This document shows, in pieces, positions 5,224 through 61,000 of a DNA stretch of 64,000 nt. This stretch comes from Octopus vulgaris (taxonomy: Eukaryota). The notes beneath the pieces are model-generated. The model was not told where the DNA came from. It saw only the letters and a program-made list of their open reading frames with translations, and searched no databases. The stretch is from NCBI GenBank assembly GCA_951406725.2, contig OX597822.1:117676001-117740000 (forward strand), in the 5' to 3' direction. The stretch's first letter is position 1. Each line of letters starts with the position of its first letter. A program made the position numbers and the translations under genes.

Positions 5224-5606
5224 AGGAGTGGCTGTGTGGTAAGTAGCTTGCTTATCAACCACATGGTTCCGGGTTCAGTCCCACTTTGAGCTAGTGTCTT
5301 CTACTACAGCTTCGGGCTGACCAAAGCCTTCTGAGTGGATTTGATAGACGGAAACTGAAAGAAGCCCGTCGTATATATGTATATGTATACATATGTGTGT
5401 GTGTTTGTCCCCCCTACCCCAACATCGCTTAACAACCGATGCTGGTGTGTTTACGTCCCTGTAACTTAGCGGTTCGGCAAAAGAGACGGATAAAATGAGT
5501 ACTAGGCTTACAAAGAATAAGTCCTGGGGTCGATTTGCTCGACTAAAGCCGGTGCTCCGGCATGACCGCAATCAAATATGACTGAAACAAGTAAAAGAGT
5601 AAGGAG
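5224..5606 (+). mobile_element. tRNA-derived SINE family A
   Basis: A-box TGGCTGTGTGGT, B-box GGGTTCAGTCCC, internal microsatellite, tail GTAAAAGA repeats; many copies in the window. Confidence 0.9.
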
Positions 5607-6730
5607 TCAACAACATAAACAGTTAATTGACAAAGACTTAACAACACAATTCAATTTCTCGTGCACAAATCCACTGTCTTTTCAAACTACCATTTCTACG
5701 AAAAATACGTCTTCCCAGAGCAGAGCTGTATCCATATCAACCAAGGTCCATCTTACATACTCATCTCTCTATTTCATGTCACAAGATATTGTTCTTCTCT
5801 TACACATTTAGACTCCTCAGTAACAAAATAGGAAGTGGTAACCTCCAAAAGAACATTGATACGCAGCATAATTTAAGACAATTATTTACATGGAATTCCT
5901 CTTATTGGTTTAACTAGACGAAGGCCTAACTCACATTGATTTGACCCGTTCTTGACAGTGAGGGACAGTTGTGGTTCTCCGGGTAAGTATTGTTAGGAAA
6001 AGCCCGCAAAAGCTTGTAACATTCTGGAATAGTTCTGGAATAGTTCTGCCTTCACAGCTATATATAGGCACATTTATTTTCATACTGTTTCAACAGAAGT
6101 TCGGATCGCTGTGCGGTCATGAATACGATCAGCAATGAAAGATTAGCTGGGAACCAAAGTTCAAAGTATTGTTACAACAACGCTAATCAAGAAAGGGACA
6201 AACAGACCTTAAGGTATATCTTAATGGCAGCAACTGAGTTAGAGAAGTTCTCTATTCACAAAGCAGTACAATGGGAAACAGATTCTGATTTGATAATTTT
6301 AACAAAATGGAATAAGAATTCTGGAGTGACAAGCCAGAATATGAAAGCGAGAGGCGATTCAGGAATTAGATTCACTATAAGAACATATTACCAAAGGTAA
6401 CAGAATTTGCTACGTCAGTAAACGACATTAATAGGTTCCCTTGACAAGGAAATGCTTTGTTACAATTATCACTGTGTAAGCAGCAACAGCGTCTCTCTGC
6501 CCCAATAAAAGCAAAGAAGGCTTCAAAAGCAACTAAGAACCACACGTTTCGCAATAACAGTCACGCGGTGAGACTTTATGTCCGAATAATATATTTTGTC
6601 ACAGTATGAAGTTTATTGCTTCGTGAGAGAGCCATGCAGACTAAATTTAGATCGGTATTCACACTTCAAATTAAATTTATAATGTGTATACAAACGTAAA
6701 ACAGTGTTAGTAGTGAGATTCTAACGAAGG

Positions 6731-6882
6731 GCGCAGGAGAGGCTGTGTGGTAAGTAGCTTGCTTACCAACCACATGGTTCTGGGTTCAGTCCCAATGCGT
6801 GGCATCTTGGGCAAGTGTCTTTTACTATAGCCTCGGGCCAACCAAAGCCTTGTGAGTGGATTTGGTAGACGGAAGCCCGTCG

Positions 6883-6914
<32 letters not shown>

Positions 6915-7135
6915 AGTGTGTGTATGTTTATGTGCCTGTGTCCCCCTAGCATTGCTTGACAACCGATGCTGGTGTGTTTACGTCCCCGTAACATAGCGGT
7001 TCGACAAATGAGACCGATAAAACAAGTACTGTGCTTACAAAGAATAAGTCCCGGGGTCGATTTGCTCGACTAAAAGCGGTGCTCCAGCATGGCTGCAGTC
7101 AAATGACTGAAACAAGTAAAAGAGTAAAAGAGTAA
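6731..7135 (+). mobile_element. SINE family A
   Basis: Full-length copy with CORE-like CTTGGGCAAGT. Confidence 0.9.
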
Positions 7136-8052
7136 AGGAAATCACTTGAGGAACCTTGCGTGTTAAAAGACTGTGGTCATGGTTCTTCGTGATTAACCGG
7201 TTCTTCCTTGGAAAGAGCAGCTCCGTCACTTAAGGTACTACGTAATCTTTCTTTAGCCTTAGTTTGAAAAATTCTCAGGTATCCCAAGCAGCATCTGCAT
7301 GCAATACAAATGGACTAACAAGAACTAGGGAACCATTAATTCAAGATGAACTTACGATACATTCGTTCCCCATTATGAGTATATTTATACACATAATCGA
7401 ATACATACACATACGCACTCACACATACACACACTCACATACATATACATATATACATATAAATACATGTATATATGTGTGTGTATGCGTATGTGTACGC
7501 GCTTGCGCGTGTTAATTCACTCGTACATTCGCACACGCAGACAAGCAAATAAACAGACCAACAAATAGAGAGACAATTGTTGTACGATAAATGCTGTGCG
7601 TTTTAATTCCATTCTTAAGTCGTTAATAATTGTTCGCTTGTATACTCATATGTCGGACATAGTTTTGAATTTAATGTATCTGATACGTCTGGGAATAGTC
7701 AGAAATGCGTAAGTACATCTCGAAATAATGTTTCCTAATGCTAGCCATTATCATTTGCATTATCAGAAAATAGAAGACAAGTGGGGGACTTGTTACTAAA
7801 GGGAGAAATTTATTGTAGACGGTGCTCTTAGATAATTGCAGAAAGAAAAGATGGCCGGCTGAGAATTCCATCTCATATACAGTTAAGATAAATTATATGT
7901 TGTCTGTTGCACAGTTAAGTAAGAGTCATTGTTTGAATGTCTATCAAGTGTAAGAGTTGAAGACGTGTGTGTCCTGAAGTACGCGCCTCAAACACTTGAT
8001 TGAAGAATGACGCACTCATGCAGATGCAAAAATGTACACACACACTCACATG

Positions 8053-8399: not shown

Positions 8400-9600
8400 T
8401 GTTGTTGTCGACCGATTTCGCTTTCGCTAATCATGACATTGAAATTATTATAATATCGTGTTCTCTTAAGAATATTTTAGTCCATGTTGTGTGTAAAGTT
8501 TGAGAATGAATGATTCAACAACTAGAAGAACGTAAGGGGAGGTAATTTCTCATCCTTCTGGGAGGGGATGAATAAATATACACAAAAGCTCAAAAGCTAA
8601 AGTAGTGAGATGAAATATGTACAGTGATGGGTATGATATCGTGAATTAAAATATATACTGAGATCAAAGTTGGTTATGGGTTCATATTTAGACGTGTTCT
8701 GTATTTTTCGAAGAACAAATTTTCTTTATATAAACGTTCTTGTATAGATATAGATTCTTTGCACTGGTAGATGGGGAGCACTGTCAAGTTTGGTTGGATA
8801 TTACCTGCACATCTCTCTATGTGTTCATTCAAGAGAATCTGTCTGTATTGCGGGAACCAGATCTGTTCCGTGAGTAGTGTAGTTCTCCGTCTCAGTGTCA
8901 TACTTGTCTGACCTATATAATGTCCACAACGTGAACAAGTCATAACATAAATTAGATTCTCGGACACACAAGTGAACGTGGTTTTAATTGTGAACCTCTC
9001 TCCTTATTTGAATAGGAATTCCGTGCCTTCTAGTAGGTTGGGGCGTGTTCCATGTTTGAGCGTACACATTTTTAACCGTTCGTTTCGTGGTGGTTGGTGT
9101 GTAAAACTTCGCATTTGTTAGAAGTCTTTTTAGCGATGTGTGTTGCTTTTTGCATTTGATGAATTCATGCACTTTCAGAATGTTGTTCATTTTTGGGTCT
9201 CTATTTAGTAAAGGGAGTTTTTTTTTACAATAGTGTTGTATGCCTCATTGTTTCTAGGGTTGTGAGTTGATATATACAGTAGTGTTTTGAGATGAGTTGT
9301 GGTGTTACGTATTGTCGCCCTTAGTGCTTTAACGTCTAATTTCTAACCACACTTAATTCCATCGTCTGTAGGCGAAGGTGGATATTGTCTTTCAGTTAGT
9401 GTTGTCTTGAGGTTTGAACGATGAAGGGCCCGAGTATCTCTATCAGGCACTATTGTGTATTCTATCAGAGGCTATTATGCATTCTATCAGACACCTTTTA
9501 CTAAATTAAAGGGGGTATTTCTTTTGATGTGTTTTTGGCGACAAAAGCTAAACGGGAGTTATTGCTTCAAGTCTGTTGGTTTATGATAAATGTCAGTTAT
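8400..9600 (-). mobile_element. Penelope-like element remnant (RT C-terminus, GIY-YIG, pLTR)
   Basis: NLIYVMTCSRCGHYIGQT is a GIY-YIG motif with Cys pair. Upstream SLKRLL linker. A hammerhead-like motif lies downstream at 8406-8438. Confidence 0.85.
8406..8438 (-). ncRNA. Minimal hammerhead-like ribozyme, A3-U8 core
   Basis: UGUC AUGAUUA GC-GAAA-GC GAAA UCGG UC^ GACA. Confidence 0.65.
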
Positions 9601-9622
9601 AATTTGGTTGTTGACCTTTTAT

Positions 9623-9664
<42 letters not shown>

Positions 9665-9667
<3 letters not shown>

Positions 9668-10027
9668 CGCAGGAGTGGCTGTGTGGGTTCAGTCCCACTG
9701 CGCGGCATCTTGGGCAAGTGTCTTCTGCTATAGCCCTGGCCGACCAATGCCCTGTGAGTGGATTTGGTAGACGAAAACTGAAAGAAGCCTGTCGTATATA
9801 TGTATATGTGTGTGTGTGTGTTTGTGTGTCTGTGTTTGTCCCCCTAGCATTGCTTGACAACTGATGCTGGTGTGTTTACGTCCCCGTCACTTAGCGGTTC
9901 GGCAAAAGAGACCGATAGAATAAGTACTGGGCTTACAAAGAATAAGTCCTGGGGTCGATTTGCTCGACTAAAGGCGGTGCTCCAGCATGGCCGCAGTCAA
10001 ATGACTGAAACAAATAAAAGAGTAAAA

Positions 10028-10029
<2 letters not shown>
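9665..10029 (+). mobile_element. SINE family A (head deletion), within (TA)n
   Basis: Matches the other copies. Confidence 0.9.
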
Positions 10030-10091
<62 letters not shown>

Positions 10092-11199
10092 CAATATATG
10101 TATTACGTACATACATACGTATGTATATTTACATATATATATATCTTAAAAAGGTTAATTTGTTAAAGAAGGGGAGTTTAGATAAACGATATATGCTATT
10201 CCAATAGATTACGTAGAATACAATCTTTATCTAAACTTAACCACTTTTCTCTTCCTCGAGACTCCGGATTCACCTCATTGCGATCATTAGATGAACCGTT
10301 AATTTTGCTATTGTTCCAGCTTGTTTTATAGACAATGGAACATTAGTTCATTCCTTAGTGTATTGATATCATTTTCAGTGGATGGATTTTCGATGTTGTT
10401 CAAAGCGTTGCCACTAATTATCGTCGCCTTTCCTTTGCCAATTAGTGAATTATAGTTGCTTTTTAGTTCATGCGTAATTTCCTGTTATCGTTTTCAATTA
10501 TCCCAATCTTAAAGAATAGCTGCAAGCTAAGTTCAACATAACGACATATAAGCAAAAACTTAACGACGTAAGACCAAATTCTCAGAATAAAATCCGTTTG
10601 ACGTAGGATAAACGACAGTTAACGTCAACGCTGAGAACCCAGTTTATCAGAAGTTTCTAAACGTAAGCTTATCCCCCAAGTACCTGTGTCATTTAGGAAT
10701 TGTTAGAGCTCTTTAGCTATATTTCTCTTGTTATATTGCTTACTTTGTTGCTAATGTTAGTTGTATATTTGCAGAATACTCTAAATATGAAATATATAGC
10801 AAAAAAGAAAAAAAAAAAACCCGCAAAAGTCTTTATAATATTATTGATATCAAATATAGAATCTCTGTTTCAAGATGGGACAATGGCCGTTCATGCCGTA
10901 AAGACAAGAATTGGTAGGCTGTAAACAACAAAAACATGCAGAAAATGGGGACAGAAAATAAGGATCGGGTGCATTAATGTGTCAATCAAAATATGTATCA
11001 TATTTAAGGCACACCTCCACACACAAACACAAATATGTATTAAATAGAACTTCAGTTAGGGATGATTTCCGTAACATTGTATATGTACATACATACGTAT
11101 GTATGTAAGTATGTATGTATGTACGTATGTATGTATGTATATATGTATATATGTATGTGTGTGTATGCATGTATGTATGTATGTATGTATGTATGTATG

Positions 11200-12856: not shown

Positions 12857-14015
12857 AGTATATATTACACTTCTATATTTAAGAGATGAGGTATTATATA
12901 CATTATTTACAATGTTTACATTATCTACATTTGACGGATATTTGTCCTCATCTTGTTTGTTAACACAACGTTCCGGTTGATATATCCTCCAGACTTCTTC
13001 AGGTGACTTGGAGAAATTTCGAACCTGGGTTCTCATTCCTAAGGTATTTTTCGATGTTATTATATACTTCTTTTTCTTCTTCTTCTTCTTCTTCTTCTTC
13101 TTCTTCTTCTTCTTCTTCTTCTTCTTCTTCTTCTTCTTCTTCTTCTTCTTCTTCTTCTTCTTCTTCTTCTTCTTCTTCTTCTTGTTCAGATCACTGCTTG
13201 GAATCGAACTCGGAATCATGGGATTAGAGTGAAATTTAGGGCTTATAAATCTAATATTTTTCTATCCACCCGTAGCACCGGTTTCCATATGCTGTTCATA
13301 TTTGCACTCAATCTGCTTAGGAGGTTGTTGTGTCCTAGCATATGTACTGCTTCTTTAATTTTCGTATTTTCCACTGGTGTTGTCTATTATTTAAACTTCA
13401 TCCCACAGGGGGAGGTGGTCTCCATTTTTCCATTCATGATCAGCTATACCCGATTTATCAATATCTCCTCATGTCACAGCTTTGCAATGTTCCTCTACTC
13501 TTATTTTGAGGGAGCGGCTTGTCTCGCCTTTGTATAACTTACCACAGCTGCACGGGATGGAGTACACGCAGTCTTTGGTCATATTCTCTTCTATTGGTAG
13601 TTTCACTTGAAGGAGATATTTGCGAAGTATTGCTCTTGAATACTGTCCTGATGTCATATGGGCCACATATCTTTTGTATCTTTTCGGAGAGGCCTTTCAC
13701 ATAGGGTAGACAGACTGTGGACAGTTTTTTGGCCACATCCTCTCTCTTCTTCATAACTGGAGTGGAGAGTATGTTTTGGGGGTAGTTGTTGCTTAACAGA
13801 TCGTTATTGAGATTGATCATTTCTTCGTGGTGTGTATCACGACCACTACTTATATTCTTTGCTCGATGTTTTAGGCACTGAGCAATCCCTCTCTTTACAC
13901 TGTATGGATGGTGGGAATTGAAGTTGAGGTATTGTCCAGTAAAGGTCGGCTTGCAGTATATGGATGTCTTGAATCCATACTTGGTGCGTGTTATTAATAC
14001 GTCCAGGAATGCCAG
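12857..14015 (-). mobile_element. Penelope-like element remnant (RT C-terminus, GIY-YIG, pLTR)
   Basis: KTSIYCKPTFTGQYLNFNSHHP, LPYVKGLSEKI, CVYSIPCSCGKLYKGETSRSLKIRVEEH. Interrupted by (TTC)n at about 13068-13185. Hammerhead-like motif downstream. Confidence 0.9.
12964..13005 (-). ncRNA. Decayed PLE hammerhead, C3-G8 core
   Basis: CAC CUGAAGA A GUCUG...CAACC GGAA CG UU GUG; GAAA mutated to GGAA; lies downstream of a GIY-YIG remnant. Confidence 0.55.
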
Positions 14016-14019
14016 CTGA

Positions 14020-14740
14020 TTGTCTGCTTGGTATTAGGGACGTATTTTATTTTTTGGGAGAAGCCGCTGGCAGCGAGCGCTTGGTCGTAATATGGTGCGT
14101 GGTTATTGAATTTTTCCTCAGTGGAAGAGAGGTCAGATGTACGGATCGAGATACCGTTGACTATGTTATCAAAGGTGGATTTGTGGTGACTGGAATGAAT
14201 GTTTAGGTTTTCAGGTATTTAAGGCATTGGTTAGGTTCGTGATAAAGGGGTGTATTGGTATGTTTCTAAGTTTAAAGTTATGTCTAAAATGTTGGTAGTT
14301 TTGTGAGAATTTTCAAACGTAATAGACAGGTTTAGGCTAGAGAAGAATTTGTGTAGATCTTTTCTAGCTCGTTCTAAAAAGAATTTATCTACGATCTTGG
14401 TAACTAGCAAGACGTCATCTCTGTAGAGGCCTCCTTTGAGGTTAAGGAAATGTATTTGGAGCTGGTGGAGTATGTATAGTCCAACTAGGTCGGTGACCTG
14501 GACGGAGTCCGATAAGCCCATGGTAATGTCAAATAAATTACTATGGTTATTGGTATTGTTTTGGTGATTGGCCCGGCACCAAGGTTTGTCCTCAAAAGAA
14601 ATAAGGGTTTTGCGGCTATTAAGGATTATATTAATTTCTAGTGAAGGAAGGTTGGTTAGATTCCTAGCTAGAAGGAGTGCTTAAGAAGTTTGGGAGAAAT
14701 AGAAAATTAGTAAATATTTATATCGAATTGTAGGAAAGAA
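14020..14740 (-). mobile_element. Penelope-like RT remnant of a second lineage
   Basis: MGLSDSVQVTDLVGLYIL...GGLYRDD...NILDITLNL, matching the PLE RT MGS.D.AEV..LVGLY / GLYRDD pattern. Confidence 0.8.
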
Positions 14741-16469: not shown

Positions 16470-16554
<85 letters not shown>

Positions 16555-16583
16555 GAGCGAGAGAGAGAGAGAGAGAGAGATAA

Positions 16584-16815
16584 AGGCGGCTAGCTGGCAG
16601 AAACGTTAGCACGCCGGGCGAAATGCGTAGCCGTATTTCGTCAGTCGTTACGTTCCGAGTTCAAATTCCGCCGAGGTCGACTTTGCCTTTAATCCCTTTG
16701 GGGTCGATAAATTAAGTGCCAGTTACGCACTGAGGTCGATGTAATCGACTTAATCCCTTTGTCTGTCCTTGTTTGTCCCCTCTATGTTTAGCTCCTTGTG
16801 GGTAGTAAAGAAAAG
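16584..16815 (+). mobile_element. tRNA-derived SINE family B (Deu/Nin-like central domain)
   Basis: A-box AGCTGGCAGAA, B-box GAGTTCAAATTC. The family core GCCTTTCATCCTTTCGGGGTCGATAAA..AAGTACC resembles the DeuSINE/Nin domain. Confidence 0.88.
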
Positions 16816-17934
16816 AAAAAATATATTTATATAGATAGATAGATAGATATGTACACATATGTATACATGTGTATGTATGTATGTATGTCTCCAGTGTGAA
16901 CTCTCGGGAAAAAGAGTACTTGATACCATTGTGAAGATTAATGATAACTGATTCTATTTTATCTGTTCTTGTTATCTTCGCCTTAGCGAAGGCGGAGGTA
17001 TTGTTTCAGTCATGTTTCTTTGTTTGTATATGGACAAGATATCTCAAGAACCGCCGGATGAAACTTTCAGGGATGTTTGACCAGAAGGAAGGAAGACGAA
17101 AAGGGGGTGGATAAAATAAGCGAAAAGGAACTTGAGGAGCTGTTCAAAGAGGTGTTGCATGAGGAACAGACATTGGTGAAGACACCGGTTGTTCCGGTGG
17201 AGGGAGGAAATTTAGAAACGCAACTGGAGAGACTGTTCAGAGTGGTGGAAGAAAAGAAGGTACCAGGAACGGAGCAGGAAAAGAGAAAACAAATTAGGAA
17301 AGGAAAATTTCGATGGAATTTCGTGACGCAAAAAGCAAAGAAACTGAAAAGAAAGTATTAAAGTTTAAACATATTATATAAGAGTAAAGTTGGCCACGGA
17401 TGTGTATTCCGAGAATGTAAAAAGCCATCGTGGTCGACAAGGACACCTACAACAGACTAAAAGACATGTGTGGAGAAGGGATTGACGCGCCAGGAGTGAT
17501 GGTGGAGTTCGATGAATTGGCACCTGTAGTGGAGCTGAAAGATTTAGAACCTTTCATGAGATATTAAAAAGGAAAAAAGTAAGTAAAATTGTTTTATTGA
17601 AGAAAGAAGGAAAAAGTAAAATTGTTTCATTTTAAAAAAGAGGAAAAAACGAGATTAAGAAAAAAAACAATAAGAAAAATAGAACGATTGTAAATAGTTT
17701 ATATAAACGTTCAAATAATACTGCGTGGGACTGGGGCCCATGCAGCCGTTTCATTTATCATTTTTATATAACGTTTCATTTTCATTCGTTTTATGTTTTT
17801 GTCTCCACTGTGGTGTTGTGTTTGCCTTTGTAGTGACCCCTCTGTGTTGTGGCCCTAGTGCCAAAATAAAGAACCATAGTTTCACCCGTCTACAATTATT
17901 GTTGCTGTCACTTTTGCTTTCATTTCTCTGCTAT

Positions 17935-19411: not shown

Positions 19412-19689
19412 TTTGTGAAAATCGAAGAGAGACGTATTTTTCAGAAGTTTTAGAATCGTTCGCTTTCACTTCCTCTGTTATTCTCAAATTACATTGAAAG
19501 AAATGTTGAATTTAGAATTATGAAGATGTACTTGCATAGCAAGTGACCTGATCTGAGATCGTGTGCTGAAACAAAAACAATTGCAGCATGGAAGGTGTAT
19601 ATAAGCCATTCAAAGACACAAAAACCGTTAGATTCACTTCAACATTTAAATTAATTTTCCAAAATATTTTCGTCGCTGCAGCACGGAAT

Positions 19690-19740
19690 TTTGTCTGTGA
19701 ACAGGTCGCTGTCTCAAAGCTACGAAAATATTTTGACAAA
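19690..19740 (+). ncRNA. Minimal hammerhead-like ribozyme, G3-C8 core
   Basis: UUUGUC(U) GUGAACA G GUCGCU-GUCUCAA-AGCUAC GAAA AUAU UU^ (U)GACAAA. Confidence 0.6.
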
Positions 19741-20099
19741 TTAAATTTTAATTTAGAAGAAAGCAAACAAATAGATAATTTTTCTTGAAGATAAACCGAA
19801 ACAGAGAAAAAAAATCGAGAATTGTGGAGACACAAAAATATTGAGGTTTCAGTGGAATTCGAAATTAAAAAGAAAGATAAATGAATTTAAGATAGAAATA
19901 AGGAATGCCACAATTAATGCTTTAACATTTGCGTTCATTTCTGCAGACTAGATTTATGCCTATATTCCAAGGAAGGCGTGACTAGATTTTCTGAAGTTCA
20001 TACCCGAGCAAAATAGTGAAACCTTCTGAGTTACATTCAGTGGTGTACAATGTGAATCAAATTTGGGATATTTTCTTTACACGGTTTCGCTGAGACCTG

Positions 20100-23577: not shown

Positions 23578-23729
23578 GTAAATATACATTTATATATACA
23601 CTCATATATATATGAGTGTGTATATATGTATATATATATATATATATATGTATATACGCACACACATATATTTGTATGTGTATATATATATATATATTCA
23701 TGAATACATTCACACAATTATATATACAA

Positions 23730-23735
<6 letters not shown>
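23378..23735. repeat. Quasi-palindrome centred on (TA)n
   Basis: Complex flanks are reverse complements of each other. Confidence 0.9.
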
Positions 23736-23772
<37 letters not shown>

Positions 23773-24177
23773 TGGAGTAGCTGTGTGGTAAGTAGCTTGT
23801 TTACCAACCACATGGTTCCGGATTCAGTCCCACTGCGTGGCACCTTGGGCAAGTGTCTTCTACTATAGCCTCAGGCCGACCAAAGCCTTGTGAGTGGATT
23901 TGGTAGACGGAAACTGAAAGAAGCCCGTCGTATATTTTGTATATATATGCGTGTGTGTGTTTGTGTGTCTGTGTTTGTACCCCTAGCATTGCTTGACAAC
24001 CGATGCTGGTGTGTTTATGTCCCCGTTACTTAGCGGTTCGGCAAAAGAGACCGATAGAATAAGTACTGGGCTTACAAAAGAATAGGTCCCGGTGTCGAGT
24101 TGCTCGACTAAAGGTGGTGCTCCAGCATAGCCGCAGTCAAATGACTGAAACAAGTAAAAGAGTAAAAGAGTAAAGAG

Positions 24178-24178
<1 letters not shown>
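23773..24178 (+). mobile_element. SINE family A
   Basis: Full-length copy. Confidence 0.92.
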
Positions 24179-24263
<85 letters not shown>

Positions 24264-26271: not shown

Positions 26272-26554
26272 TAAATATCTTTAAAATTGCATTTTCAAAC
26301 CTTCTTTCATATATATTCACAGAGAGAGAGAGAGAGAAAGAAACTTGCGGTTGGAAAGCCGTCCTTGAATATTCATTAAGCAATAATATGCGTTTCTACA
26401 CTTGTCTGACAATAGGCCTTTACATAAAATCATGTATATATTCAAAGAGAGAAAATATACAGAGACCATCTATAAATGAAAGGAAAATATAAAAGTGGGT
26501 ACATAAGACGGGAACTGCCTTTGCTAACATCTGCCATATCATAATTAGAACAGT

Positions 26555-26870
26555 TTTTTCAGTCATTTCACTGCGGCCATGCTGGAGCATCGCCTTTATA
26601 CGAGCAAATCGACCCCCAGGACTTATTCTTTGTAATACTAGTACTTATTCTATCGGTCTCTTTTGCCGAACCGATAAGTTACGGGGACGCAAACACACTT
26701 GCATCGATTGTCAAGCGATGTTGGGGGGACAAACACACACAAAAAACACACATCTATATATGACAGGCTTCTTTCAGTTTCCTTCTAGCAAATCCATTCA
26801 CCAGGTTGAACCCGGAGCCAGAACCATGTGGTTGGTAAGCAAGCTAGTCACCACACAGCCACTCCTGCTC
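26555..26870 (-). mobile_element. SINE family A (internal deletion)
   Basis: Reverse-complement match to family A. Confidence 0.87.
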
Positions 26871-27114
26871 CTATGTATTTGTATAGCTTCACTGAAATCA
26901 ACCGAAATATTGCAGCGACTCATCCTGGCTCATTTTTGTCAATTTTGTTTTTCCATATAATTATGTTAGTGTGTGAATTCTTACTAAATTATTTAGATAA
27001 TTAGAAAGACATATTAATTAATTTATTTCTTAATCAATGCAAATTTAAAAGTCTTCTTTCTCTATCTTCTCGTTTACTTTTGCAGTCGGTGCTAAGTTTG
27101 CGCGCGCACGCACA

Positions 27115-27504: not shown

Positions 27505-27872
27505 CCTCTCTAAACTAAAATCCCGCCGAGGTCGACTTTGCCTTTCATCCTTTCGGGGTCGATAAATTAAGTACCAGGTACGCACGGGGGTCGATGTAAT
27601 CGACTTAATCCGTTTGTCTGTCCTTGTTTGACCCCCCTGTGTGTAGCCCCTTGTGGGCAGTAAAGAAATAAGAAACGTTAGCACGCCGGGCGAAATGCTT
27701 AGCGGTATTTCGTCTGCCGTTACGTTCTGAGTTCAAATTCCGCCGTGGTCGACTTTGCTTTTCATCCTTTTGAGGATCGATAAATTAAGTACCAGTTGCG
27801 TACTGGGGTCAATCTAATCGACTGGCACCGTCCCCCAAAATTTCGAACCTTGTGCCAAGAGTAGAAAAGAAT
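27505..27872 (+). mobile_element. SINE family B dimer
   Basis: A long-tail unit followed by a short-tail unit. Confidence 0.88.
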
Positions 27873-28557
27873 ATTTACGTTTTAGAGTGTTAGGTGAGTA
27901 CAGAGCGTAATATACACTATTAAATAACAAAAGAACAAGAGTTACGTAATCCCTTGCATTAATTCATGTGTACACAAGCATCTACATCAATGAAATATAT
28001 TTGTATCAGCCTTATTTTTTAATTTCAGAAATCAAAGGAGGATTTTGTTCTCTAGATTTTGAGTTCAAATTATGCCACGGTCGAGTTTGTCTTTTACGCT
28101 TTCAGGGTGAATAAAATACGTATAGCTGAGCACAGGGGGTGATCTTATCGACTTTCTCATACTCCTAAATTTGCTAACCTTGTGCCGAAATATGAAAGCA
28201 GTATTTATTTCAGAAATCATTACGTATATTTGGTGGATGGTGGACTGGCGAATTCATCATTGCTATTTCGTTATCTTCTGAGTTGAAGATTTACACCTAA
28301 GAAAGTTGTCTTTCGTCCTTCGGGGGTCGATAAAAAGGTAGAGAAAAAACAGCTAATTACTACAGAAGGTTTTAATCGCCTATCATTTCTCTCTTATGTT
28401 AGAAATCATTATTTCTTCCTTTCATTATATTATAAATACACAAATCTGCATACTTACTCACACAGTTACATGGCTTCAATAAATACGTGGGTTTAAATTA
28501 TATTTTGCTGGAAAATATTTTGAAAAAACAAAACAAAACAACCGCATAGAAATTAGA

Positions 28558-28972
28558 ATTTCTTTATTGCCGACAATGGGCTAAACACAGATGGGACAAA
28601 CAAGGACAGACAAACGGATTAAGTCGATTATATCGACCCCAGTGCGTAACTGGTACTTAATTTATCGACCCCGAAAGGATGAAAGGCAAAGTCGACCTCG
28701 GCGGAATTTGAACTCAGAACGTAGCGGCAGACAAAATACCTATTTCTTTACTACGCACCAGGGGCTAAACACAGAGAGGACAAACAAGGATAGGCAAACG
28801 GATTAAGTCGATTATATCGACCCCAGTGCGTAACTGGTACTTATTTAATCGACCCCGAAAGGATGAGAGGCAAAGTCGACCTCGGCGGAATTTGAACTCA
28901 GAACGTAACGGCAGACGAAATACGGCTACGCATTTCGCCCGGCGTGCCAACGTTTCTGCCAGCTCGCCGCCT
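28558..28972 (-). mobile_element. SINE family B dimer
   Basis: Two head-to-tail units. Confidence 0.9.
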
Positions 28973-29647
28973 TACAACCGCATAGAAATTATACGTCATT
29001 GTTTCGGTGTCAGTACAACAGCTAGGTCATATCTTTTTTAGTAAATCTATTCAGTAATGTGCACTGAATTAGCCTAGGGAAGGTAGCACACCTCAATGAA
29101 TACGATTATAGTAATCAATGTTACGTTTCGTTTTGGCTGTTGTCGGTGTTGGCAAAGTGAAGGTAGTGTCAGCGCTGCTTCTATAATATTACGTGCGTTT
29201 GATCTTGATAGTTATACGAAACTTTTAGAGCAAGGTTAAGCTCCTTTAAATAAAACAAGCCTAATCAATACACAGAACTTGATCAATGTAAAAACCAAAA
29301 ATTGATCTGAAATTATCGATTGCTCTACATCAGTTTTCAAGCTATCCTCCAAACACCTACAAGAAGTAAAGATGTTCGAAATGCACACACATAAATATAT
29401 GCATACATATATACCCGCGTGCGAGGGAAGTCACACACAGACACACACACACAGACACACACACACGCTTGCACACACATAGATACACAGACGCTCACAT
29501 GTATGTATATATAATATTATTTAGTATTATAATTATATACATATTTATGTAGGATATCACATTATTACATACATTTTTATATATAACCTCTCTCTAGGTG
29601 TATGTGTATACATATATATATGTATACATATATATGTATGTGTATAT

Positions 29648-29866
29648 ACTCTCTTTACTCTTTTACTCTTTTACTTGTTTCAGTCATTTGACTGCGGCCA
29701 TGCAGGAGCACCGCCTTTAGTCGAGCAAATCGACCCCGGGACTTATTCTTTGTAAGCCCAGTACTTATTCTATCGGTCTCTTTTGCCGAACCGCTAAGTG
29801 ACAGGGAGGTAAACACACCAGCATCGGTTGTCAAGCAATGCTAGGGGGACAAACACAGACCCCTTC

Positions 29867-29912
<46 letters not shown>

Positions 29913-30077
29913 TACGACAGGCTTCTTTCAGTTTCCGTCTACCAAATCCACTCACAAGGCATTGATCGGCCCGGGGCTATAGCAGAAGACACTTGCCCAA
30001 GATGCCACGCAGTGGGACTGAACCCGGAACCATGTGGTTGGTTAGCAAGCTACTTACCACACAGCCATTCCTGCGCC
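29648..30077 (-). mobile_element. SINE family A
   Basis: Full-length reverse-complement copy. Confidence 0.92.
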
Positions 30078-30082
30078 TTATT

Positions 30083-30168
<86 letters not shown>

Positions 30169-35490: not shown

Positions 35491-35528
<38 letters not shown>

Positions 35529-35582
35529 TTATATATACACATATACACACATACATACATATGCATATATATATATATATGA

Positions 35583-35805
35583 AGGCGGCGAGCTGGCAGA
35601 AACGTTAGCACGCCGGGCGAAATGCGTAGCTGTATTTCGTCTGCCGTTACGTTCTGAGTTCAAATTCCGCCGAGGTCGACTTTGCCTTTCATCCTTTCGG
35701 GGTCGATAAATTAAGTACCAGTTACACACTGGGGTCGACTTAATCTGTTTGTCTGTCCTTGTTTGTCCTCTCTGTGTGTAGCCCCTTGTGGGTAGTAAAG
35801 AAATA
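35583..35805 (+). mobile_element. SINE family B monomer in (TA)n
   Basis: Full-length match. Confidence 0.9.
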
Positions 35806-35899
35806 TATATATATATATACATATATTGATATAGATATACATACATATATGTGGATAAAATATATGTATACATACATTTGGATTTTCAACAATGAAAAT

Positions 35900-41215: not shown

Positions 41216-41736
41216 TTTGAGTTGTTATTACTTTGCTGTCAAAGAGGATAGCAACATGTCTGACACATGAATCTAAAGTGACAGTTTATCAGCAGCCCGT
41301 TTATTATTGATCAGTAAGCCGCTCAAAGATAATATCATCGGATTAACAGCAGAATCGGTTGGTACTGATATTGGTTTGTTCAGCTTGTGACAGTATGTGA
41401 GAGTAGTCTCCGTCCGCCGACCAGTTTGCCAGAAAAAAATGTACGCATGCATACATACATGCATGCATCTATGTATGTATGCATGTATGTATGTGTGTAC
41501 GGATGGATGGATGGCTGCACGGATGGTTGAATGGATGAAAGGATTAATTTTTGGATGTACGTATGTTTGACTATTATGTATGTTTTTTTTCTTGTCAATG
41601 GAAGATGATCCGGTTTGCACCCCGGATCCGAAGCTCTTCCAACAACATGAATAGGGTAATTGTGTGTGTATATATATGCAAGTACTTGATGTCAGTGCAT
41701 GTGCAGATCTGCATATTTTGTTTTATGTATGTGCAC

Positions 41737-42379
41737 TTATATATATAGTTGCAAGTCTAGATGCGTACATGTGTACATATATGCTAAATTTTGGAAAGTT
41801 TTACTAATGCTTTGTCTTCTGATTAGCTTTCTCCCTTCTAGTTTTGGGACCGTAATTTTCAAGATCGGTGCTGAAGCAGTTGGTTTCCTACCGTAGTTTC
41901 TCAAAGAAAATACGCGTATAAACCTGAACTTGTAATCCGGGTGGAGTAAATATCTCCGTAGTTTAGTGGAAGTGTTTTCTTTGCCGCTAATCTCAAGCTT
42001 TATCTTGGTATCTGCTGAGTAAACTTTCACTACTCTACATAGTTTCTCTTTTCTATCCGGTATATCACGTTCACATTTTATTGACATTTTCACTGGGATA
42101 TTACACCAGTACTCCTGCATTGTATGAATGCTTATAATCTCTACCGCATTGTGGGTTACTGTATCTTTGGTTCTTCTGACGGATCTCATCGTACTGTGGA
42201 TAGGCCATAACACTGCGTCTCATAACATAGCATGATGGCATTTTCGGACATTACAATGTTATCAAAGTCTCAATCATCACATTTCGGTGCTTATCCTCTG
42301 CCTACGTCTCTTTTTGTGCAACAGCAATTTGATTGCTATCTCCTGTTCGTGGATTAGAAATGCATACCTTTCAAATTAA
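41737..42379 (-). mobile_element. RLE-type LINE remnant related to the 34.4 kb copy, ending at a Helitron
   Basis: EYWCNIPVKMSIKCE..PD...ADTKIKLEISGKEN...LLHPDYKFRFI. Confidence 0.65.
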
Positions 42380-44354: not shown

Positions 44355-45473
44355 TGCACACACACACACGCGCGCGCGTTTATATATAGCAGCATCAGCA
44401 TCAAACAGTGATGAACAAACGAATTCTAGGTTAGTTAAATTAGGCGATATTCTTCAACTTCTAAAGGCAAATTGACAGCAGTTGCCGTTGGGGAAAAGAA
44501 TTCTCTCTCATAGCAAGAGACTGGCTTAGAGAAGAACAGCGGTTGAAGGACTCCACAAACGATAAAATCCTGGATATTGGATTTTGGAAAAGGTGTAAAC
44601 CACAAAAACTGCCCTTTCTCCACGGCAACTGCAGTGAATTTCTCACAGACATATTTCAATTAACCTGAAATTCGTTTATTCTTCATCCCTGCATGTATGT
44701 ATGTATGTATGTATGTATGTATGTATGTATGTATTTATGTATGTATGTATGTATGTATGTATGTATGTATGTATGTATGTATGTATGTATGCATGTATGT
44801 ATGTATGCATGTATGTATGTGTGTACGGATGGATGGATGGCTGCACGGATGGTTGAATGGATGAAAGGATTAATTTTTGGATGTACGTATGTTTGACTAT
44901 TATGTATGTTTTTTTTCTTGTCAATGGAAGATGATCCGGTTTGCACCCCGGATCCGAAGCTCTTCCAACAACATGAATAGGGTAATTGTGTGTGTATATA
45001 TATGCAAGTACTTGATGTCAGTGCATGTGCAGATCTGCATATTTTGTTTTATGTATGTGCACTTATATATATATAGATGCGTACATGTGTACTTATATGC
45101 TAAATTTTGGAAAGTTTTACTAATGCTTTGTCTTCTGATTAGCTTTCTCCCTTCTAGTTTTGGGAACCGTAATTTTCAAGATCGGTGCTGAAGCAGTTGG
45201 TTTTCTACCGTAGTTTCTCAAAGAAAATACGCGTATAAACCTGAACTTGTAATCCGGGTGGAGTAAATATCTCCGTAGTTTAGTGGAAGTGTTTTCTTTG
45301 CCGCTAATCTCAAGCTTTATCTTGGTATCTGCTGAGTAAACTTTCACTACTCTACATAGTTTCTCTTTTCTATCCGGTATTTTAATTTTGTCCAGGCGGT
45401 CCGCGAGCTCAACTCATTCACTGATGTTGATTGTGTTTAGATAAAGCTACGGCTTTGAATCTTTCTTCGGCAT

Positions 45474-48634: not shown

Positions 48635-49334
48635 GGGAGGTGACGGCAGCAGGGAGGGCCAAAAGGATGAGGAAAGCATCCAGAGCCAAATGGAGAAGCC
48701 TGGAACACAGGGAAACGATGACACATGTCCAGCTTCCAACACCACAACTGAAGACCAAAGAGGTGCGATGGCCGCAAGAAAGGAAAGGCACCCTGGAATT
48801 GATGGGAAGCAGGAGGTAAAGGGTGACAGAATCAAGGCTAAAGGAAGCCCTGTCCAGAGAAAGCAGAGGGACCCCAGCAAAAACTGTAAGGGCAGGGAAA
48901 GAAGCACCTGCAAATTCTACCTGAGGGGGGACTGCTGGTACGGCGTTGAAGGTGCAAACTGTCGCTTTGCACATCGGAGGCCCTACCGAAACCGCACGGA
49001 CGCGAGACAGAAGTCCCTCCCTCAGGGAGAACAAAAACAAAAACAAAAAGAAAAAGTTAAAAGAAGGGAAAAAAGCGCACTGACCACTACTGAAAGACGG
49101 TATGCAGATGTGGTGCGCGGAAACCCAATAGGTGGCCAGCTTCACCCAGATGTGAGAAGGGCGGCAGCTGAACAGCAGTCTTTTTTGTGCATGGCACAAA
49201 AAATTGTTCAGCAGCTGACCTGGCTACAAGCACAAAGCTGGAACTACCACCACATAAGGCCACCTCCAACAGATGCAGGATGGCCACCACAGACACCAAC
49301 ACCAACACACACACCACAAAAATATTTCTACTGA
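48633..49334 (+). CDS. LINE ORF1 with CCCH-type zinc finger (possibly 5'-truncated)
   Basis: 233-aa basic ORF containing [22 protein letters not shown] (C-x7-C-x8-C-x3-H). It overlaps the start of ORF2. The ATG abuts the (TA)n tract. Confidence 0.75.
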
Positions 49335-50206
49335 ATGTAGGAGGGCTGCTGCGCGGAAACTGTAAAAAGAAAATTTCATTCCTGAGAGACCTTGTGACAT
49401 GCAATCAAGCTATATGCATGGCACTCACAGAAACGCATCTTGAACCCGATATAGGTGATGCAGAAATACACATGCCGCAATATGCAGTCATACGCACAGA
49501 TAGAAAAGGGAGGAGCCATGGTGGAGTTGCAATGTACATCCGAGATGACCTCACGCCCCAGGTCCTGCTGTCATATTCAAACTCAGTATGTGAAACTCAA
49601 ATTGTACACATAAGACAACTGAATATCGTCATATGCACTACATATCGCCCACCAGATGCCCCAAAACACTCAGGCATGTTTGAAGACTGCCTAACAAAAA
49701 TAGGAGAAGTCCTCACCAACCTTGAACAGCACAACAGTGTATTCTTCATGGGTGACTTTAACCTCCCCAATGTGGAATGGCCTGGGGGGCAGATGCTCCC
49801 AGGGATGACACACCATCAGCAGGCACAGGTGGAGTCCCTGCTCCATCTCACAAATGCCTCTTTCATGGAGCAAATAGTTCTGCAACCAACAAGGGCAGAT
49901 AATATACTGGATCTCTGCTTCACAAACAATATGGATATTATCCATAATGTTAATGTGATGCCGACAATGATCTCGGATCACAACATAATAGAGCTGTCTA
50001 TGTATGGAACAAAAACCCCAGCAGACACACAGCCTATACGAAGCACCCACCATCTCTCCAACTTAAACTTTCATAAAGCCAACTGGAAGTCGATTGAGAA
50101 AGAGATCCTCAAACAGGATTGGCCTGAATGTCTCTCCACACCGGACATAAACATGAAACACAAACACTTCATGTCCATAATACAAGCCATATGTGACAAA
50201 AATTGA
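49187..50206 (+). CDS. LINE ORF2 N-terminal apurinic-like endonuclease (APE)
   Basis: Motifs LLNVGGL, ALTETHL, RKGRSHGGVAMY, TYRPP, MGDFN, NILDLCF, SDHN. The likely real start is MATT near 49280. The frame ends at the junction near 50200. Confidence 0.92.
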   Translation: MHGTKNCSAADLATSTKLELPPHKATSNRCRMATTDTNTNTHTTKIFLLNVGGLLRGNCKKKISFLRDLVTCNQAICMALTETHLEPDIGDAEIHMPQYAVIRTDRKGRSHGGVAMYIRDDLTPQVLLSYSNSVCETQIVHIRQLNIVICTTYRPPDAPKHSGMFEDCLTKIGEVLTNLEQHNSVFFMGDFNLPNVEWPGGQMLPGMTHHQQAQVESLLHLTNASFMEQIVLQPTRADNILDLCFTNNMDIIHNVNVMPTMISDHNIIELSMYGTKTPADTQPIRSTHHLSNLNFHKANWKSIEKEILKQDWPECLSTPDINMKHKHFMSIIQAICDKN

Positions 50207-51755
50207 GTACATCAACATCGAAGAAGATGATATCACACTAGCCATTGATGAGATTGACACAAACTCAGCTGCTGGACCTGATGGATTCCCAGCGATCCTT
50301 CTCAAATCGTGCAAACGAGCCCTTGCAAAACCGCTACAGCTTCTTTTTCAGAGCTTTCTTGCAAGTGGTAAGCTCCCAGTCAAACTGAAAGAGGGAGTAA
50401 TATGCCCTATCCATAAGGGAGGTAGCAGAGCAGATGCTAAAAATTATAGGCCTATCTCTCTGACCTCACACATCAGCAAAGTCATGGAACGAATAGTCCG
50501 TAAGAAACTAATCATGTTCCTTGAAGAAAATGACTTACTGTCTGACACCCAGCATGGATTTCGACCAGGTAGAGGCTGCCTAACACAGCTCCTGCAACAC
50601 TATGACTGGGTGTTGAAACAGCTACTAAATGGCTCAAATGTGGATGTAATATATCTCGACTTTGCAAAAGCCTTTGATAAAGTCGACCATGGTATGATCT
50701 GTCACAAACTGCGTGGTCTCGGCATAGGCGGGAAACTTGGAGAGTGGCTGCACAACTTTCTAAAAGACAGAAAACAGGCAGTTGTGAGCAATGGAGCCAC
50801 CTCCAAGGAAACGCAAATAACAAGCGGTGTCCCACAGGGCACTGTCTTGGGGCCACTGATGTTCATAGTGACCCTTTCAGACATGCCTTCAGTTGCTACG
50901 ATGACCACCCTTGCTAGCTATGCAGATGACACAAAAGTCTCCCACGCAATACAAAACACTGAAAATATTGCGCATCTGCAACATGAGCTGGACACAATAT
51001 ACAGGTGGGCTGAGGACAACAACATGCAGTTTAATGCAGGTAAGTTCCAGGCCCTGCGCTACTGGCACACAAAGGTAAATGACGTGAAGACTGGATACAC
51101 TGGCCCAGGAAGAATTGCAATCCCTGAGTCAAAATCAGTGCGTGACATGAGCAATGATGCATCTTTCCAAATGCATATTGCTAATCTGGTGATAAAATGC
51201 AGACGGCTAGCTGGATGGATTCTCCGAACTTTCAGAACAAGAGAGAAGGAGACACTGATGGTCCTATGGAAAACATTCGTCCTCAGCCGCTTGGACTACT
51301 GCTCCCAACTTTGGTCACCACACAATATAAAACAAACAGCAGAACTCGAAGCAACTCAGAGAAGCTACACAAAGAAAATCGTCTCAATGCAAAATGTCAG
51401 CTACTGGGAAAGACTGAAGGTATTAAACCTCTTCTCCCTGGAGCGGAGGCGGGAGAGATATGCAGTGATATACATCTGGAAAATCCTGGAGGGTCTTGTC
51501 CCAAACTTTGGCATTCAAAGTTACTCCAACCGCAGAACGGGGCGCCGCTGCGTGGTGCCAAGGATTCCAACATCACCATTAAAATACAGGTCCAGATACT
51601 GCAACAGCTTGGGTTTCAGAGGACCACAGCTCTTTAACATCCTCCCTAAATGCCTGAGAGACTTACATCGTGTGGATGTGGATTTCTTTAAAACTAAACT
51701 GGATCTCTTCTTGTTGGGAGTCCCAGATGAACCTACCTCACGACAGGAGACATGA
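50193..51755 (+). CDS. LINE ORF2 reverse transcriptase domain and C-terminus
   Basis: AAGPDGF, NYRPISLTS, QHGFR, YLDFAKAFDKVDH, SGVPQGTVLGP, YADD, LDYCSQLWSP, SLERRRER. Confidence 0.95.
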   Translation: MTKIEYINIEEDDITLAIDEIDTNSAAGPDGFPAILLKSCKRALAKPLQLLFQSFLASGKLPVKLKEGVICPIHKGGSRADAKNYRPISLTSHISKVMERIVRKKLIMFLEENDLLSDTQHGFRPGRGCLTQLLQHYDWVLKQLLNGSNVDVIYLDFAKAFDKVDHGMICHKLRGLGIGGKLGEWLHNFLKDRKQAVVSNGATSKETQITSGVPQGTVLGPLMFIVTLSDMPSVATMTTLASYADDTKVSHAIQNTENIAHLQHELDTIYRWAEDNNMQFNAGKFQALRYWHTKVNDVKTGYTGPGRIAIPESKSVRDMSNDASFQMHIANLVIKCRRLAGWILRTFRTREKETLMVLWKTFVLSRLDYCSQLWSPHNIKQTAELEATQRSYTKKIVSMQNVSYWERLKVLNLFSLERRRERYAVIYIWKILEGLVPNFGIQSYSNRRTGRRCVVPRIPTSPLKYRSRYCNSLGFRGPQLFNILPKCLRDLHRVDVDFFKTKLDLFLLGVPDEPTSRQET

Positions 51756-52451: not shown

Positions 52452-53049
52452 GTATATTTTTATGAAATAGTGTTACTATAGATTTAACGTAAGGTAATGT
52501 CACGGTCCAAGTTAGAACGCTTAGAGTAAAAAGTTCTGAAAAAAAAAATTGAAGCTTTGTACCGGTGCATCTCAAGATGAGTCTTGTAACAAAAAAAAAT
52601 TACAAAATAAAGGCAAATGTTAACGGTACAAATCAGAATTAGTGAGGGCTTTGAGGGATAGGAAGCGGGTGGGGGAGGTCATTAAGTACAGAAAATGGTA
52701 AGTGGCACTATGATAGAATAAGAAAACTAAAGGTATAAGGCGAGGTACTTTTGCATTTTTTCATAAACTTCTCATTATTTGACCATGCCCTCGTTAAGAG
52801 AATAACAAACATAATTAGAGAAATTCCTGTTTTTTCTGAAGGGCTCACCCCCCCACCACCTCCACTGGAAATTACTGACACCCCCAGGTTAAAAACGACT
52901 ACTCTAAGTAATCAATTAGAATTTATTTCAGTTCACTGATTCTACCTACCAGTTAGCATAAATAAATCGTGATGTCGGATATCGTTATTGATAATAAACA
53001 CAAAAGAGTACGCAGGCCTTTGTGATAGCAATACTATAGATATCAGAAG

Positions 53050-53640
53050 GGCGGCGAGCTGGCAGAATCGTTAGCACGACGGGTGAAATGCTTTACGGTA
53101 TTTCGTCTGCCGTTACGTTCTTAGTTCAAATTCCGCCGAGGTCGACTTTGCCTTTCATCCTTTCGCAGTCGATTAAACAAGTACCAGTTACGCACTGGGG
53201 TCGATACAATCGACTTAATCCCTTTGTCTGTCCTTGTTTGTCCCCTCTATGTTTAACCCCTTGTGGGCAGTAAAGAAATAGGTATTTCGTCTGTCTTTAC
53301 TCTTTACATTCGGAGTTCAAATTCCGCTGAGGTCGCCTTTGCCTTTCATCCTTTCGGGGTCGATAAATTAAGTACCAGTTACGCACTGGGGTCGATGTAA
53401 TCGACTTAATCCGTTTTTCTGTCCTTATTTATCCTCTCTGTGTTTAGCCCCTTGTGGGTAGTAAAGAAATAGGTATTTCGTCTGCCGCTACGTTCTGAGT
53501 TCAAATTCCACTGAGGTCGCCTTTGCCTTTCATCCTTTCGGGTTCGATAAATTAAGTACCAGTTGCGTACCGGGGACGATGTAATCGACTGCACCCTTCA
53601 TCCAAAATTTCAGGCCTTGAGCCTAGAGTAGAAAAGAATA
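53050..53640 (+). mobile_element. SINE family B trimer
   Basis: Three units of about 190 bp; the last has the short tail. Confidence 0.92.
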
Positions 53641-53950: not shown

Positions 53951-54423
53951 AAATTTATATCATATTGAATAAAGGATCAGAAGCATAAAGCGTTTGCTCT
54001 TGTTAGAAGCCAGGTAATAACATTAATTCATCAAAAGGAAATGTAAGATGATATTGTACGATAAGAAACAGAGAAACAACAGACGTTTCAGAGGTCAACT
54101 ATTTAGTAACTTAGTGAGAGGAGGAAGGAACGTCCATTAATATTTTAGGGTCTCCGAGACTGGTGCTAGGAAGAGAAGGGACCAAGTTATTCTCAGATCG
54201 GGGCCCAATTTTGAATCATTACAACAGAATGATTCGTGGTTAACTTATTCAATGGATATGTGGTGGTTTTAAACTGGGTAACAGTTAATTAATCCAGGAT
54301 AATATTGGATGCTATTTAAAATATTCAATATTGAGTTAGATAGAGACTTAGCGGTTGATGAGTAGAGGCGATGTGAAATGGGTTAAAATGTGCACAAAAT
54401 GAAACACTTCGTTATTCTTCTTG

Positions 54424-55037
54424 TTTCTTTATTGCCCACAAGGGGCTAAACATAGAGGGGACAAACAAAGACAGACAAAGGGATTAAGTCGATTATTTCG
54501 ACACCAGTGCGTAACTGGTACTTAATTTATCGAACCCGAAAGGATGAAAAGCAAAGTTGACCTCGGCGGAATTTGAACTCAGAACGTAATGGCAGACAAA
54601 ATACCTATTTCTTTACTACCCACAAAGGGCTAAACACTGAGAGGACAAACAAGGACAGACAAACGGATTAAGTCGATTGTATCGACCTCCAGTGCGTAAC
54701 TGGTACTTATTTAATCGACTGCGAAAGGATGAAAGGCAAAGTCGACCTCGGCGGAATTTGAACTCAGAACGTAACGGCAGGTGAAATACCTATTTCTTTA
54801 CTACCCACAAAGGGCTAAACACAGAGAGGACAAAAAAGGAGAGACAAACAAGGACAGACATAGGTATTAAGTCGATTGTATCGACCCCCAGTGCGTAACT
54901 GGTACTTATTTAATCGACTGCGAAAGGATGAAAGGCAAAGTCGACCTCGGCGGAATTTGAACTCAGAACGTAACAGCAGACGAAATACGGTTACGCATTT
55001 CGCCCGGTGTGCTAACGTTTCTGCCAGCTCGCCGCCT
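54424..55037 (-). mobile_element. SINE family B trimer
   Basis: Three units on the minus strand. Confidence 0.92.
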
Positions 55038-55989
55038 TCTTCGTTATTCTTCTATTGTCCTTCTACTTCATCCATTGATCTACTCTCACTCACCTTAATA
55101 TCATATTACATTCATGTAAAATATCTAATTTAAATAAGAATTTATTCATGAGAGAATGAACAGAATGATTTACTCAGCGGACATGAAAAGTTAACAAATC
55201 AACAAAATAAATAAACCAGATAATATAGGCACAAATAGGACATGGCCAGGATAACGTGGTTAAGGATAAAAACAAAACGAATTAGCCAAGTGCTTAGATG
55301 CAAGAAGAGACAACGAAACGTTCGATTCGTCCAACTGATGTGTGGATTGAAAGTTGCAACGTTTCGGATCCTTGCCTTTTTGAGCGGAACAGAAGGGGAA
55401 AGTCGGTTCACAACCATCAGTTATAATTTCGTTTTGTCTCGTAATAACTTGGAAAAGTGTTAAGTCTGTAAAACGTGAAGTTCTAGTTTTCACATGCTTT
55501 TCTAGAAAGACTTATATGGATTAAATGTTGTTGATGAAGACAATCACCTAGATCTCTAATTCTTTCTGAATATGATTCCAACCAACCAACCAAAAGTAAA
55601 CGGAATGCAATATTAAACTGACCATGGAGCATTGAAATCGCTAGATTGGCATTACGAATACATCATGAGCAAAATCAGTAGACGACCGCACTCACATTAT
55701 ATGGGCGACAGTATAAGCCAAAATAGCAGTGGTTGGCATGAAAACATTTATTGAAATTAAGGGGCAAGAAGAAAGATGAAGAGATAAATGCGTTATGCAT
55801 TCTCTGTGTTTGTAACTAGGAATAATTTTTTAGCACTGATACTTTCAGCCGTATAATTAATACAAATACTAAATTAAATTAGCTTTTCTATTATTTAATG
55901 TATAAATTGTGACGCCCACTATCTCTTCGAATTGCCTCCTCCCTAAATGAATCAGAATACACATTGCACAGATAACATACCTAATAATA

Positions 55990-60762: not shown

Positions 60763-61000
60763 TACCTATTTCTTTACTTGCCACAAGGGGCTAAACACAG
60801 AGAGGACAAACAAGGACAGACAAACGGGTTAAGTCGATTATATTGACCCCAGTGCGTAACTGGAGCTTATTTAATTGACCCTGAAAGGATGAAAGGCAAA
60901 GTCGACCTCGGCGGAATTTGAACTCAGAACGTAACGTCAGACGAAATACCGCTAAGCATTTCGCCCCGCGGTGCTAACGATTCTGTCAGCTGGCCGCCTT
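60763..61000 (-). mobile_element. SINE family B monomer
   Basis: Full reverse-complement match. Confidence 0.88.

Follow-up and report, generated by a model that had tools for sequence, protein, structure and literature searches.

Positions 19690-19740 (+) of a 64,000-nt stretch of the Octopus vulgaris genome (contig OX597822.1; hereafter the window) read like a hammerhead ribozyme in which the canonical C3-G8 pair is exchanged for G3-C8, and the locus raises the question of whether this is a true hammerhead, whether a family of repeats shares its core and whether such a ribozyme could cleave. The elements named by an initial annotation, namely stem I, the GUGAACA core, stem II, the GAAA and the palindrome, were all present at the positions it gave. 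U4, G5, A6 and A9, then G12, A13 and A14, and the A15.1-U16.1 pair follow in the right order around three helices, which is the order of a type I hammerhead. A Watson-Crick pair between positions 3 and 8 is possible as G-C, and the letters of the canonical C3-G8 are absent from both the window copy and its family. The parts of the motif are as follows.

19690..19696 (+): 5′ strand of stem I, which reaches 7 bp with the family letter at 19696 (A in 97-99% of depth; U in this copy)
19697..19703 (+): core positions 3-9, G3 U4 G5 A6 A7 C8 A9 (GUGAACA), from the sequence
19704 (+): extra nucleotide, G, between A9 and G10.1, from the sequence; typical of the minimal hammerheads of Penelope-like elements (PLEs) described in PMC4209133
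19705..19723 (+): stem II, which in the family has 5 bp and begins with the pair G10.1-C11.1 (19705/19723), and its variable loop of 9 nt
19724..19733 (+): G12 A13 A14 A15.1, then helix III, then U17, from the sequence; GAAA occupies 19724-19727
19727-19732 (+): palindromic helix III, AAUAUU, from the sequence
19734..19740 (+): stem I, 3′ strand, from the sequence and fold prediction

Inspection of the sequence confirmed the stem I pairs that had been proposed (19690-19695 with 19735-19740), but the first pair of the helix, 19696/19734, is a U-U mismatch in the window copy. Stem II, described as 19705-19710/19718-19723, does contain a single C-U mismatch, but its sixth pair is private to the window copy, because the family has G at 19710 (75-91% of depth). 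Likewise, the core was read correctly apart from the extra G at 19704, between A9 and G10.1, which had gone unmentioned, and the palindrome is longer than stated, comprising 10 nt (19725-19734). The cleavage-site base, position 17, is U (19733), and from hammerhead numbering the predicted cut would fall between 19733 and 19734. U17 is a poor and unusual cleavage base for a hammerhead. The triplet UUU at 19731-19733 is formally of the NUH type by the criterion given in PMC3884650. The traits of minimal PLE hammerheads are all present, comprising the extra nucleotide at 19704, the G10.1-C11.1 pair (19705/19723) and the palindromic helix III (19727-19732), and these same three traits emerged unprompted in the PLE hammerheads described in PMC4209133.

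Two copies of one abundant repeat

Family data were obtained from contigs of 4 of 24 sequencing runs aligned to 19412-20011, with rows of small share left out; runs X6, X8 and X11 are DNA or probable DNA under three organism labels, and X16 was taken by guess to be RNA. Relative to the single-copy flank, depth reached 2,200-3,200 times at 19696 and 26,000-53,000 times at 19548, ratios that we read only as very abundant, depth not being copy number. The fall in depth toward the 5′ end is confounded by the private changes of the window copy, which also clip alignments. X16 covered the repeat without unique flank and is uninformative on the expression of this locus. Together with BLAST comparison within the window, these data resolved the locus into two copies of one repeat.

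19517..19677 (-): copy 1, 5′-truncated inside stem II, running to the family's fixed 3′ end at ~19517 (alignment to copy 2, depth)
19678..19759 (+): copy 2, starting ~12 nt before stem I, containing the whole motif and cut off at 19759 (depth)
19675..19682 (no strand): point where the two copies meet head to head, within a palindrome of 8 nt; such a join is rare in the family (depth)
19530..19544 (-): 6-bp hairpin, 13 nt from the 3′ end of the unit, which bears on a Helentron origin
19582..19593 (-): 12-nt segment complementary to the 5′ end of the unit (19677-19688), either a long-range RNA stem or a sub-terminal repeat

What had been described as an inverted partial copy of the motif aligned to copy 2 at 19637-19677 with 83% identity over 42 columns. 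It is the 5′-truncated second copy of one repeat, placed head to head, and extends to 19517, beyond the bounds originally given. It does have G at the position of the mismatching U of the plus copy, as had been pointed out, but it supports the fold only by providing a second sample of the sequence; when one RNA spans the junction, the inverted copy is predicted to base-pair with the motif's 3′ half, abolishing stems I and II. Loose ends of the aligned contigs identified copies 1 and 2 as parts of one linear unit of ~200 nt, and those of X8 behind 19759 continue as copy 1 does. At the other side of the repeat, a fixed end was evident at ~19517-19524, where 102, 85 and 70 loose ends preceded 19524 in X6, X8 and X11, respectively, and depth dropped from 1e5 to below 100 left of 19512. 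The DNA after copy 2 is single-copy, with an X6 depth of 13.1 from 19792 on. Depth in X6 was 181 at the junction (19678) versus 36,751 ten bases away (19688), and in other loci the two orientations were joined at many different points (at least 15 joints).

BLAST of the window against itself detected no third copy within its 64 kb. Several other repeats were observed. One abundant repeat with a ~185-nt unit forms short tandems at 16478-16862, 27518-27875, 28558-28973, 35493-35852, 53045-53590, 54418-55040 and 60762-61000. A second abundant family of ~400-500 nt is SINE-like with an inner microsatellite and no called tRNA, and was located by BLAST within the window at:

5224-5602, 6730-7137, 9617-10118, 23718-24260, 26554-26871 and 29597-30105: ~400-500-nt SINE-like family

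The window also contains a LINE fragment at 49172-51755 (+), with frameshift-split endonuclease (PF14529, PF03372) and reverse transcriptase (RT; PF00078) frames, and a direct duplication of ~620 nt with 96% identity (41439-42063 and 44765-45380).

Family letters, predicted folds and chance

In all four runs the majority letters were A at 19696 (97.3-99.0% of depth) and G at 19721 (94.9-98.5%), and these two letters repair exactly the two stem mismatches of the window copy. None of the variants listed in the four runs fell at 19697-19708 or 19722-19745, segments that include G3, C8 and the rest of the core; in the region of stem II and loop II the variable positions among those listed were 19709, 19710, 19713 and 19715. 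G3 and C8 were the family letters in every run, including letters read from other loci at loose ends and between joints. The family majority thus keeps GUGANCA and both stems, the loss of which from a consensus the initial annotation had said would count against a ribozyme. It is safe to state that a very large subfamily carries G3-C8; a diverged C3-G8 subfamily could have escaped the alignment.

With three family letters in place, the minimum-energy fold is the hammerhead secondary structure with stems I and II of 7 and 5 bp, whose pair probabilities were 0.64-1.0 (z -2.5; 9 of 500 shuffles as stable). The corresponding 66-nt stretch of the window copy folds no better than shuffles (z -0.07), with stem pair probabilities of 0.008 and 0.18 alone and of 0.000 and 0.002 when the inverted copy is included in one RNA. 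The strong fold of 19640-19760 (z -4.3) simply reflects the two copies pairing with each other as a hairpin. The window copy is predicted to be inactive, as it carries three private changes in and beside the stems and lies next to an inverted copy antisense to its 3′ half.

A descriptor that allowed any Watson-Crick 3-8 pair, written after the motif had been seen, matched the real window once and none of 1,435 block-wise dinucleotide shuffles of it. The whole anatomy would arise by chance at ~2e-13 per position, or ~2e-6 with the stems and palindrome granted free. We considered whether the motif could be a chance or locus-specific look-alike, either a decayed canonical C3-G8 copy or a hairpin mistaken for a hammerhead. 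The failure of the window copy as it stands to fold as a hammerhead, the fitting of the descriptor after the fact and the large number of windows scanned speak for such a reading, but they have to be set against G3 and C8 being family letters in all four runs, other loci included, against the improvement of both stems by family letters and against the complete lack of matches among the shuffles. The family letters largely exclude chance or local decay, and we consider a look-alike very improbable.

Searches for relatives were uniformly negative within the collections covered. Rfam hammerhead models did not match the window at the gathering score or at E up to 10, a level at which Rfam returned only chance matches of hairpin type. 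Family-specific patterns had no match in viral contigs, metagenomes or prokaryote genomes, nor was a relative with a different 3-8 pair found in these three types of collection; the fixed G3-C8 of one family may go back to a single founder. A broader type I pattern, G3-N8, returned 67 metagenome loci, with position 8 being T in 28, G in 15, A in 14 and C in 10, and none of the 67 combined stem II, the palindrome and UH. The best-looking locus examined (L056) sits inside a protein gene, and all 67 were rejected as relatives and treated as chance background.

Origin of the repeat

The repeat ends at a fixed 3′ position, is truncated to varying extents on its 5′ side and adjoins an inverted truncated copy; its flanks are AT-rich, being (TA)n-like in 62 X11 contigs. 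PMC8557442 describes PLE insertions that typically comprise adjacent inverted 5′-truncated copies and target microsatellites, and the head-to-head inverted copy to which attention had originally been drawn fits that description. Because inverted truncated copies, microsatellite targets and minimal-hammerhead features are all PLE traits, we infer that the repeat is the pLTR part of a PLE. A PLE enzyme acting in trans would have copied the repeat, starting at a fixed 3′ point and stopping at varying distances to leave the 5′ side truncated, and a template switch or fold-back could have produced the inverted second copy. The family-wide swapped-core hammerhead-like motif is real, and the repeat that carries it is likely PLE-derived. 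A tRNA-derived SINE was rejected as the identity of the repeat, which lacks the tRNA-like head, with its A and B boxes, of such elements.

Some copies of a PLE would be expected to continue into an RT and GIY-YIG frame, and head-to-tail partial tandems and a tail of 30-40 bp are further marks of such elements. Within the 64-kb window no gene for RT or GIY-YIG adjoins the repeat, and a protein search with the 52-residue open frame of copy 1, a weak search, gave seven candidates, none of them at E 0.1; this is the weakest point of the PLE assignment. Two PLE fragments are present elsewhere in the window, at 8.4-9.5 kb and 13.0-14.7 kb, each with a hammerhead-like motif of its own.

8674-9003 (-): GIY-YIG-like frame; Pfam match that falls short of the cutoff (E 0.0006); Atlas score 0.95, with the family present on 42-51% of the cluster's members
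8438-8406 (-): small motif resembling a hammerhead, core A3-U8, ~240 nt behind the frame at 8674-9003 and followed by a (TA)n tract
13250-14033 (-): RT/endonuclease-like fragment recognised by eye; the tested frame had no Pfam match
13005-12960 (-): decayed canonical C3-G8 minimal hammerhead, core 13002-12996, a single copy behind the 13250-14033 fragment

Neither fragment has BLAST similarity to the repeat, so that neither is its shown partner, and neither the A3-U8 nor the C3-G8 PLE end is linked to the G3-C8 repeat. The motif at 8438-8406 has a 2-bp stem II with a GAAA loop, a near-palindromic helix III and C17, and its A3-U8 may have come about by decay of a single copy; an A3-U8 hammerhead core was not found in the literature searched. 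A second RT-like fragment, apparently of different origin, abuts the first at 14030-14680.

Helentron/HINE or TIR elements are recognised by sub-terminal inverted repeats, a 3′ hairpin, a CTRR or T-run terminus, and a TT target or target duplication. An origin as a non-autonomous DNA element of one of these kinds (Helentron/HINE, or the arm of a long-TIR foldback), in which the palindromes would act at the DNA level and the hammerhead look would be captured or accidental, would account for the 12-nt inverted pair between the 5′ end (19677-19688) and 19582-19593, which is complementary at 11 of 12 positions here and 10 of 12 with the family letter (chance 0.001-0.016). It would also be consistent with the hairpin 13 nt from the fixed 3′ end, with the lack of any RT link found for the repeat and with the TIR and Helitron expansions reported in O. 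vulgaris (PMC13282606). However, the 12-nt partner sits 65 nt from the 3′ end of the unit, a CTRR or T-run terminus is absent, both arms belong to one linear unit whose junction is rare and varies between loci, and the hammerhead-specific letters would occur by chance at ~2e-6 even with the stems granted. We therefore regard a DNA element as improbable.

Catalysis and comparison with known systems

Our preferred reading, held with moderate confidence, is that the window contains a decayed copy of an abundant non-autonomous repeat of the PLE pLTR type, the family form of which is a likely minimal type I hammerhead with G3-C8 that would cut slowly and only as a dimer. In the family form, G3-C8 would make the tertiary pair that C3-G8 makes in the active fold, and C8 would keep the 2′-OH that matters for catalysis at position 8 (PMC11300833). 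Two copies would pair through the helix III palindrome and cut after U17 (19733). The predicted family fold pairs G3 with U17 as a wobble, a mirror image of the C3-G17 trap described in PMC3884650, where G3-C8 is stated to be more active with G17 than with C17 (data not shown there). The 10-nt palindrome is predicted to pair A13/A14 with U17/U1.1 at -3.8 kcal/mol, versus -0.2 kcal/mol for the 6-nt helix III; in the predicted dimer of the family form, stems were swapped and helix III was not used. With U17 and the predicted G3-U17 wobble, cutting would be slow at best.

A bolder proposal, to which we give only tentative credence, is that an active natural G3-C8 hammerhead has been fixed in a family of many thousands of copies, U17 having changed along with it and thereby avoiding a G3-C17 trap. 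According to PMC3884650, the 3-8 pair is seen in a tertiary-stabilised structure and absent from minimal-hammerhead crystals. Because the pair is seen in the tertiary-stabilised structure, fixation of a compensated swap in a successful family points to selection on catalysis.

It is also conceivable, though somewhat unlikely, that the repeat is PLE-derived and carries a true hammerhead homologue that has lost useful cleavage; the swap and U17 would then have been fixed in a founder, and amplification would not have needed self-cleavage. Such a relic is favoured by U17, by the predicted wobble of G3 with U17 and by competition from the 10-nt palindrome, and the PLE literature offers precedents: hammerhead mutations left insertion by a PLE in vitro unaffected (PMC11167929), Naiads are described as amplifying without canonical hammerheads in a paper that calls the function of PLE hammerheads unclear (PMC8557442), and minimal PLE hammerheads cleave poorly even as dimers (PMC4209133). 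Against this, two transversions that keep positions 3 and 8 complementary would be unlikely without selection on an active fold, and the family majority retains both stems and all other core letters.

If the slow dimeric G3-C8 hammerhead that we favour is indeed active, then C3-G8, A3-U8, the published U3-A8 and G3-C8 would represent all four Watson-Crick forms of the 3-8 pair in PLEs, and the family would be natural evidence that PLE lineages have been selected to keep a cleaving ribozyme. This bears on whether PLE hammerheads must cleave at all, given the tolerance of mutants during insertion in vitro (PMC11167929). If the repeat does not cleave, a very large family has spread without an active ribozyme. 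The repeat offers a simple natural substrate for testing the 3-8 pair. Families of this kind escape searches based on CUGANGA and Rfam models, so that many hammerheads in animal genomes may have gone uncounted.

In the text passages searched, G3-C8 was found only as engineered mutants, and a natural case may be in print elsewhere. A natural U3-A8 has already been published (PMC3088659, PMC4209133). The double mutant C3G/G8C partly restores cleavage in a PLE hammerhead, that of Anolis Poseidon PAc (PMC11167929), and a deep scan identified it as the sole rescue within the CUGA region (PMC9901934). The octopus repeat has the same swapped pair as these partly active molecules, which are laboratory mutants, whereas here it is the state of a family.

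The repeat is probably already present in some octopus repeat library under some label. Probes from it were absent from the supplement, the part searched, of an O. vulgaris annotation study (PMC13282606). It resembles the octopus Naiad PLEs (Craig et al. 2021, PMC8557442) in its (TA)n target and its inverted 5′-truncated copies. Naiads were rejected as its identity: six repeat probes of 9-15 nt did not occur in the supplement of that paper, and the Naiad ends displayed there are dissimilar.

The repeat also shares a short non-coding unit, a type I hammerhead and many solo copies with the non-LTR retrozymes (bioRxiv 10.64898/2026.07.22.740005), which are non-autonomous PLE derivatives. Head-to-tail tandem arrays and circular RNA are described for the retrozymes, whereas the repeat is known from solo copies, and its non-canonical core would likely be missed by the canonical and minimal descriptors of that study.

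The closest comparison is with the minimal hammerheads of PLEs (Cervera and De la Peña 2014, PMC4209133). The repeat differs from these in having G3-C8 rather than C3-G8 or the U3-A8 of Schistosoma Cercyon, and in having U17, and a link to a PLE open reading frame is seen only in the minimal hammerheads. Its stems I and II measure 7 and 5 bp, against 4-5 and 7-8 bp, respectively, in S. mansoni. In the remaining respects the two are alike, sharing the type I order, the extra nucleotide at 9/10.1, the G10.1-C11.1 pair, a palindromic helix III suited to dimers, dispersed single copies and nearby copies on the opposite strand.
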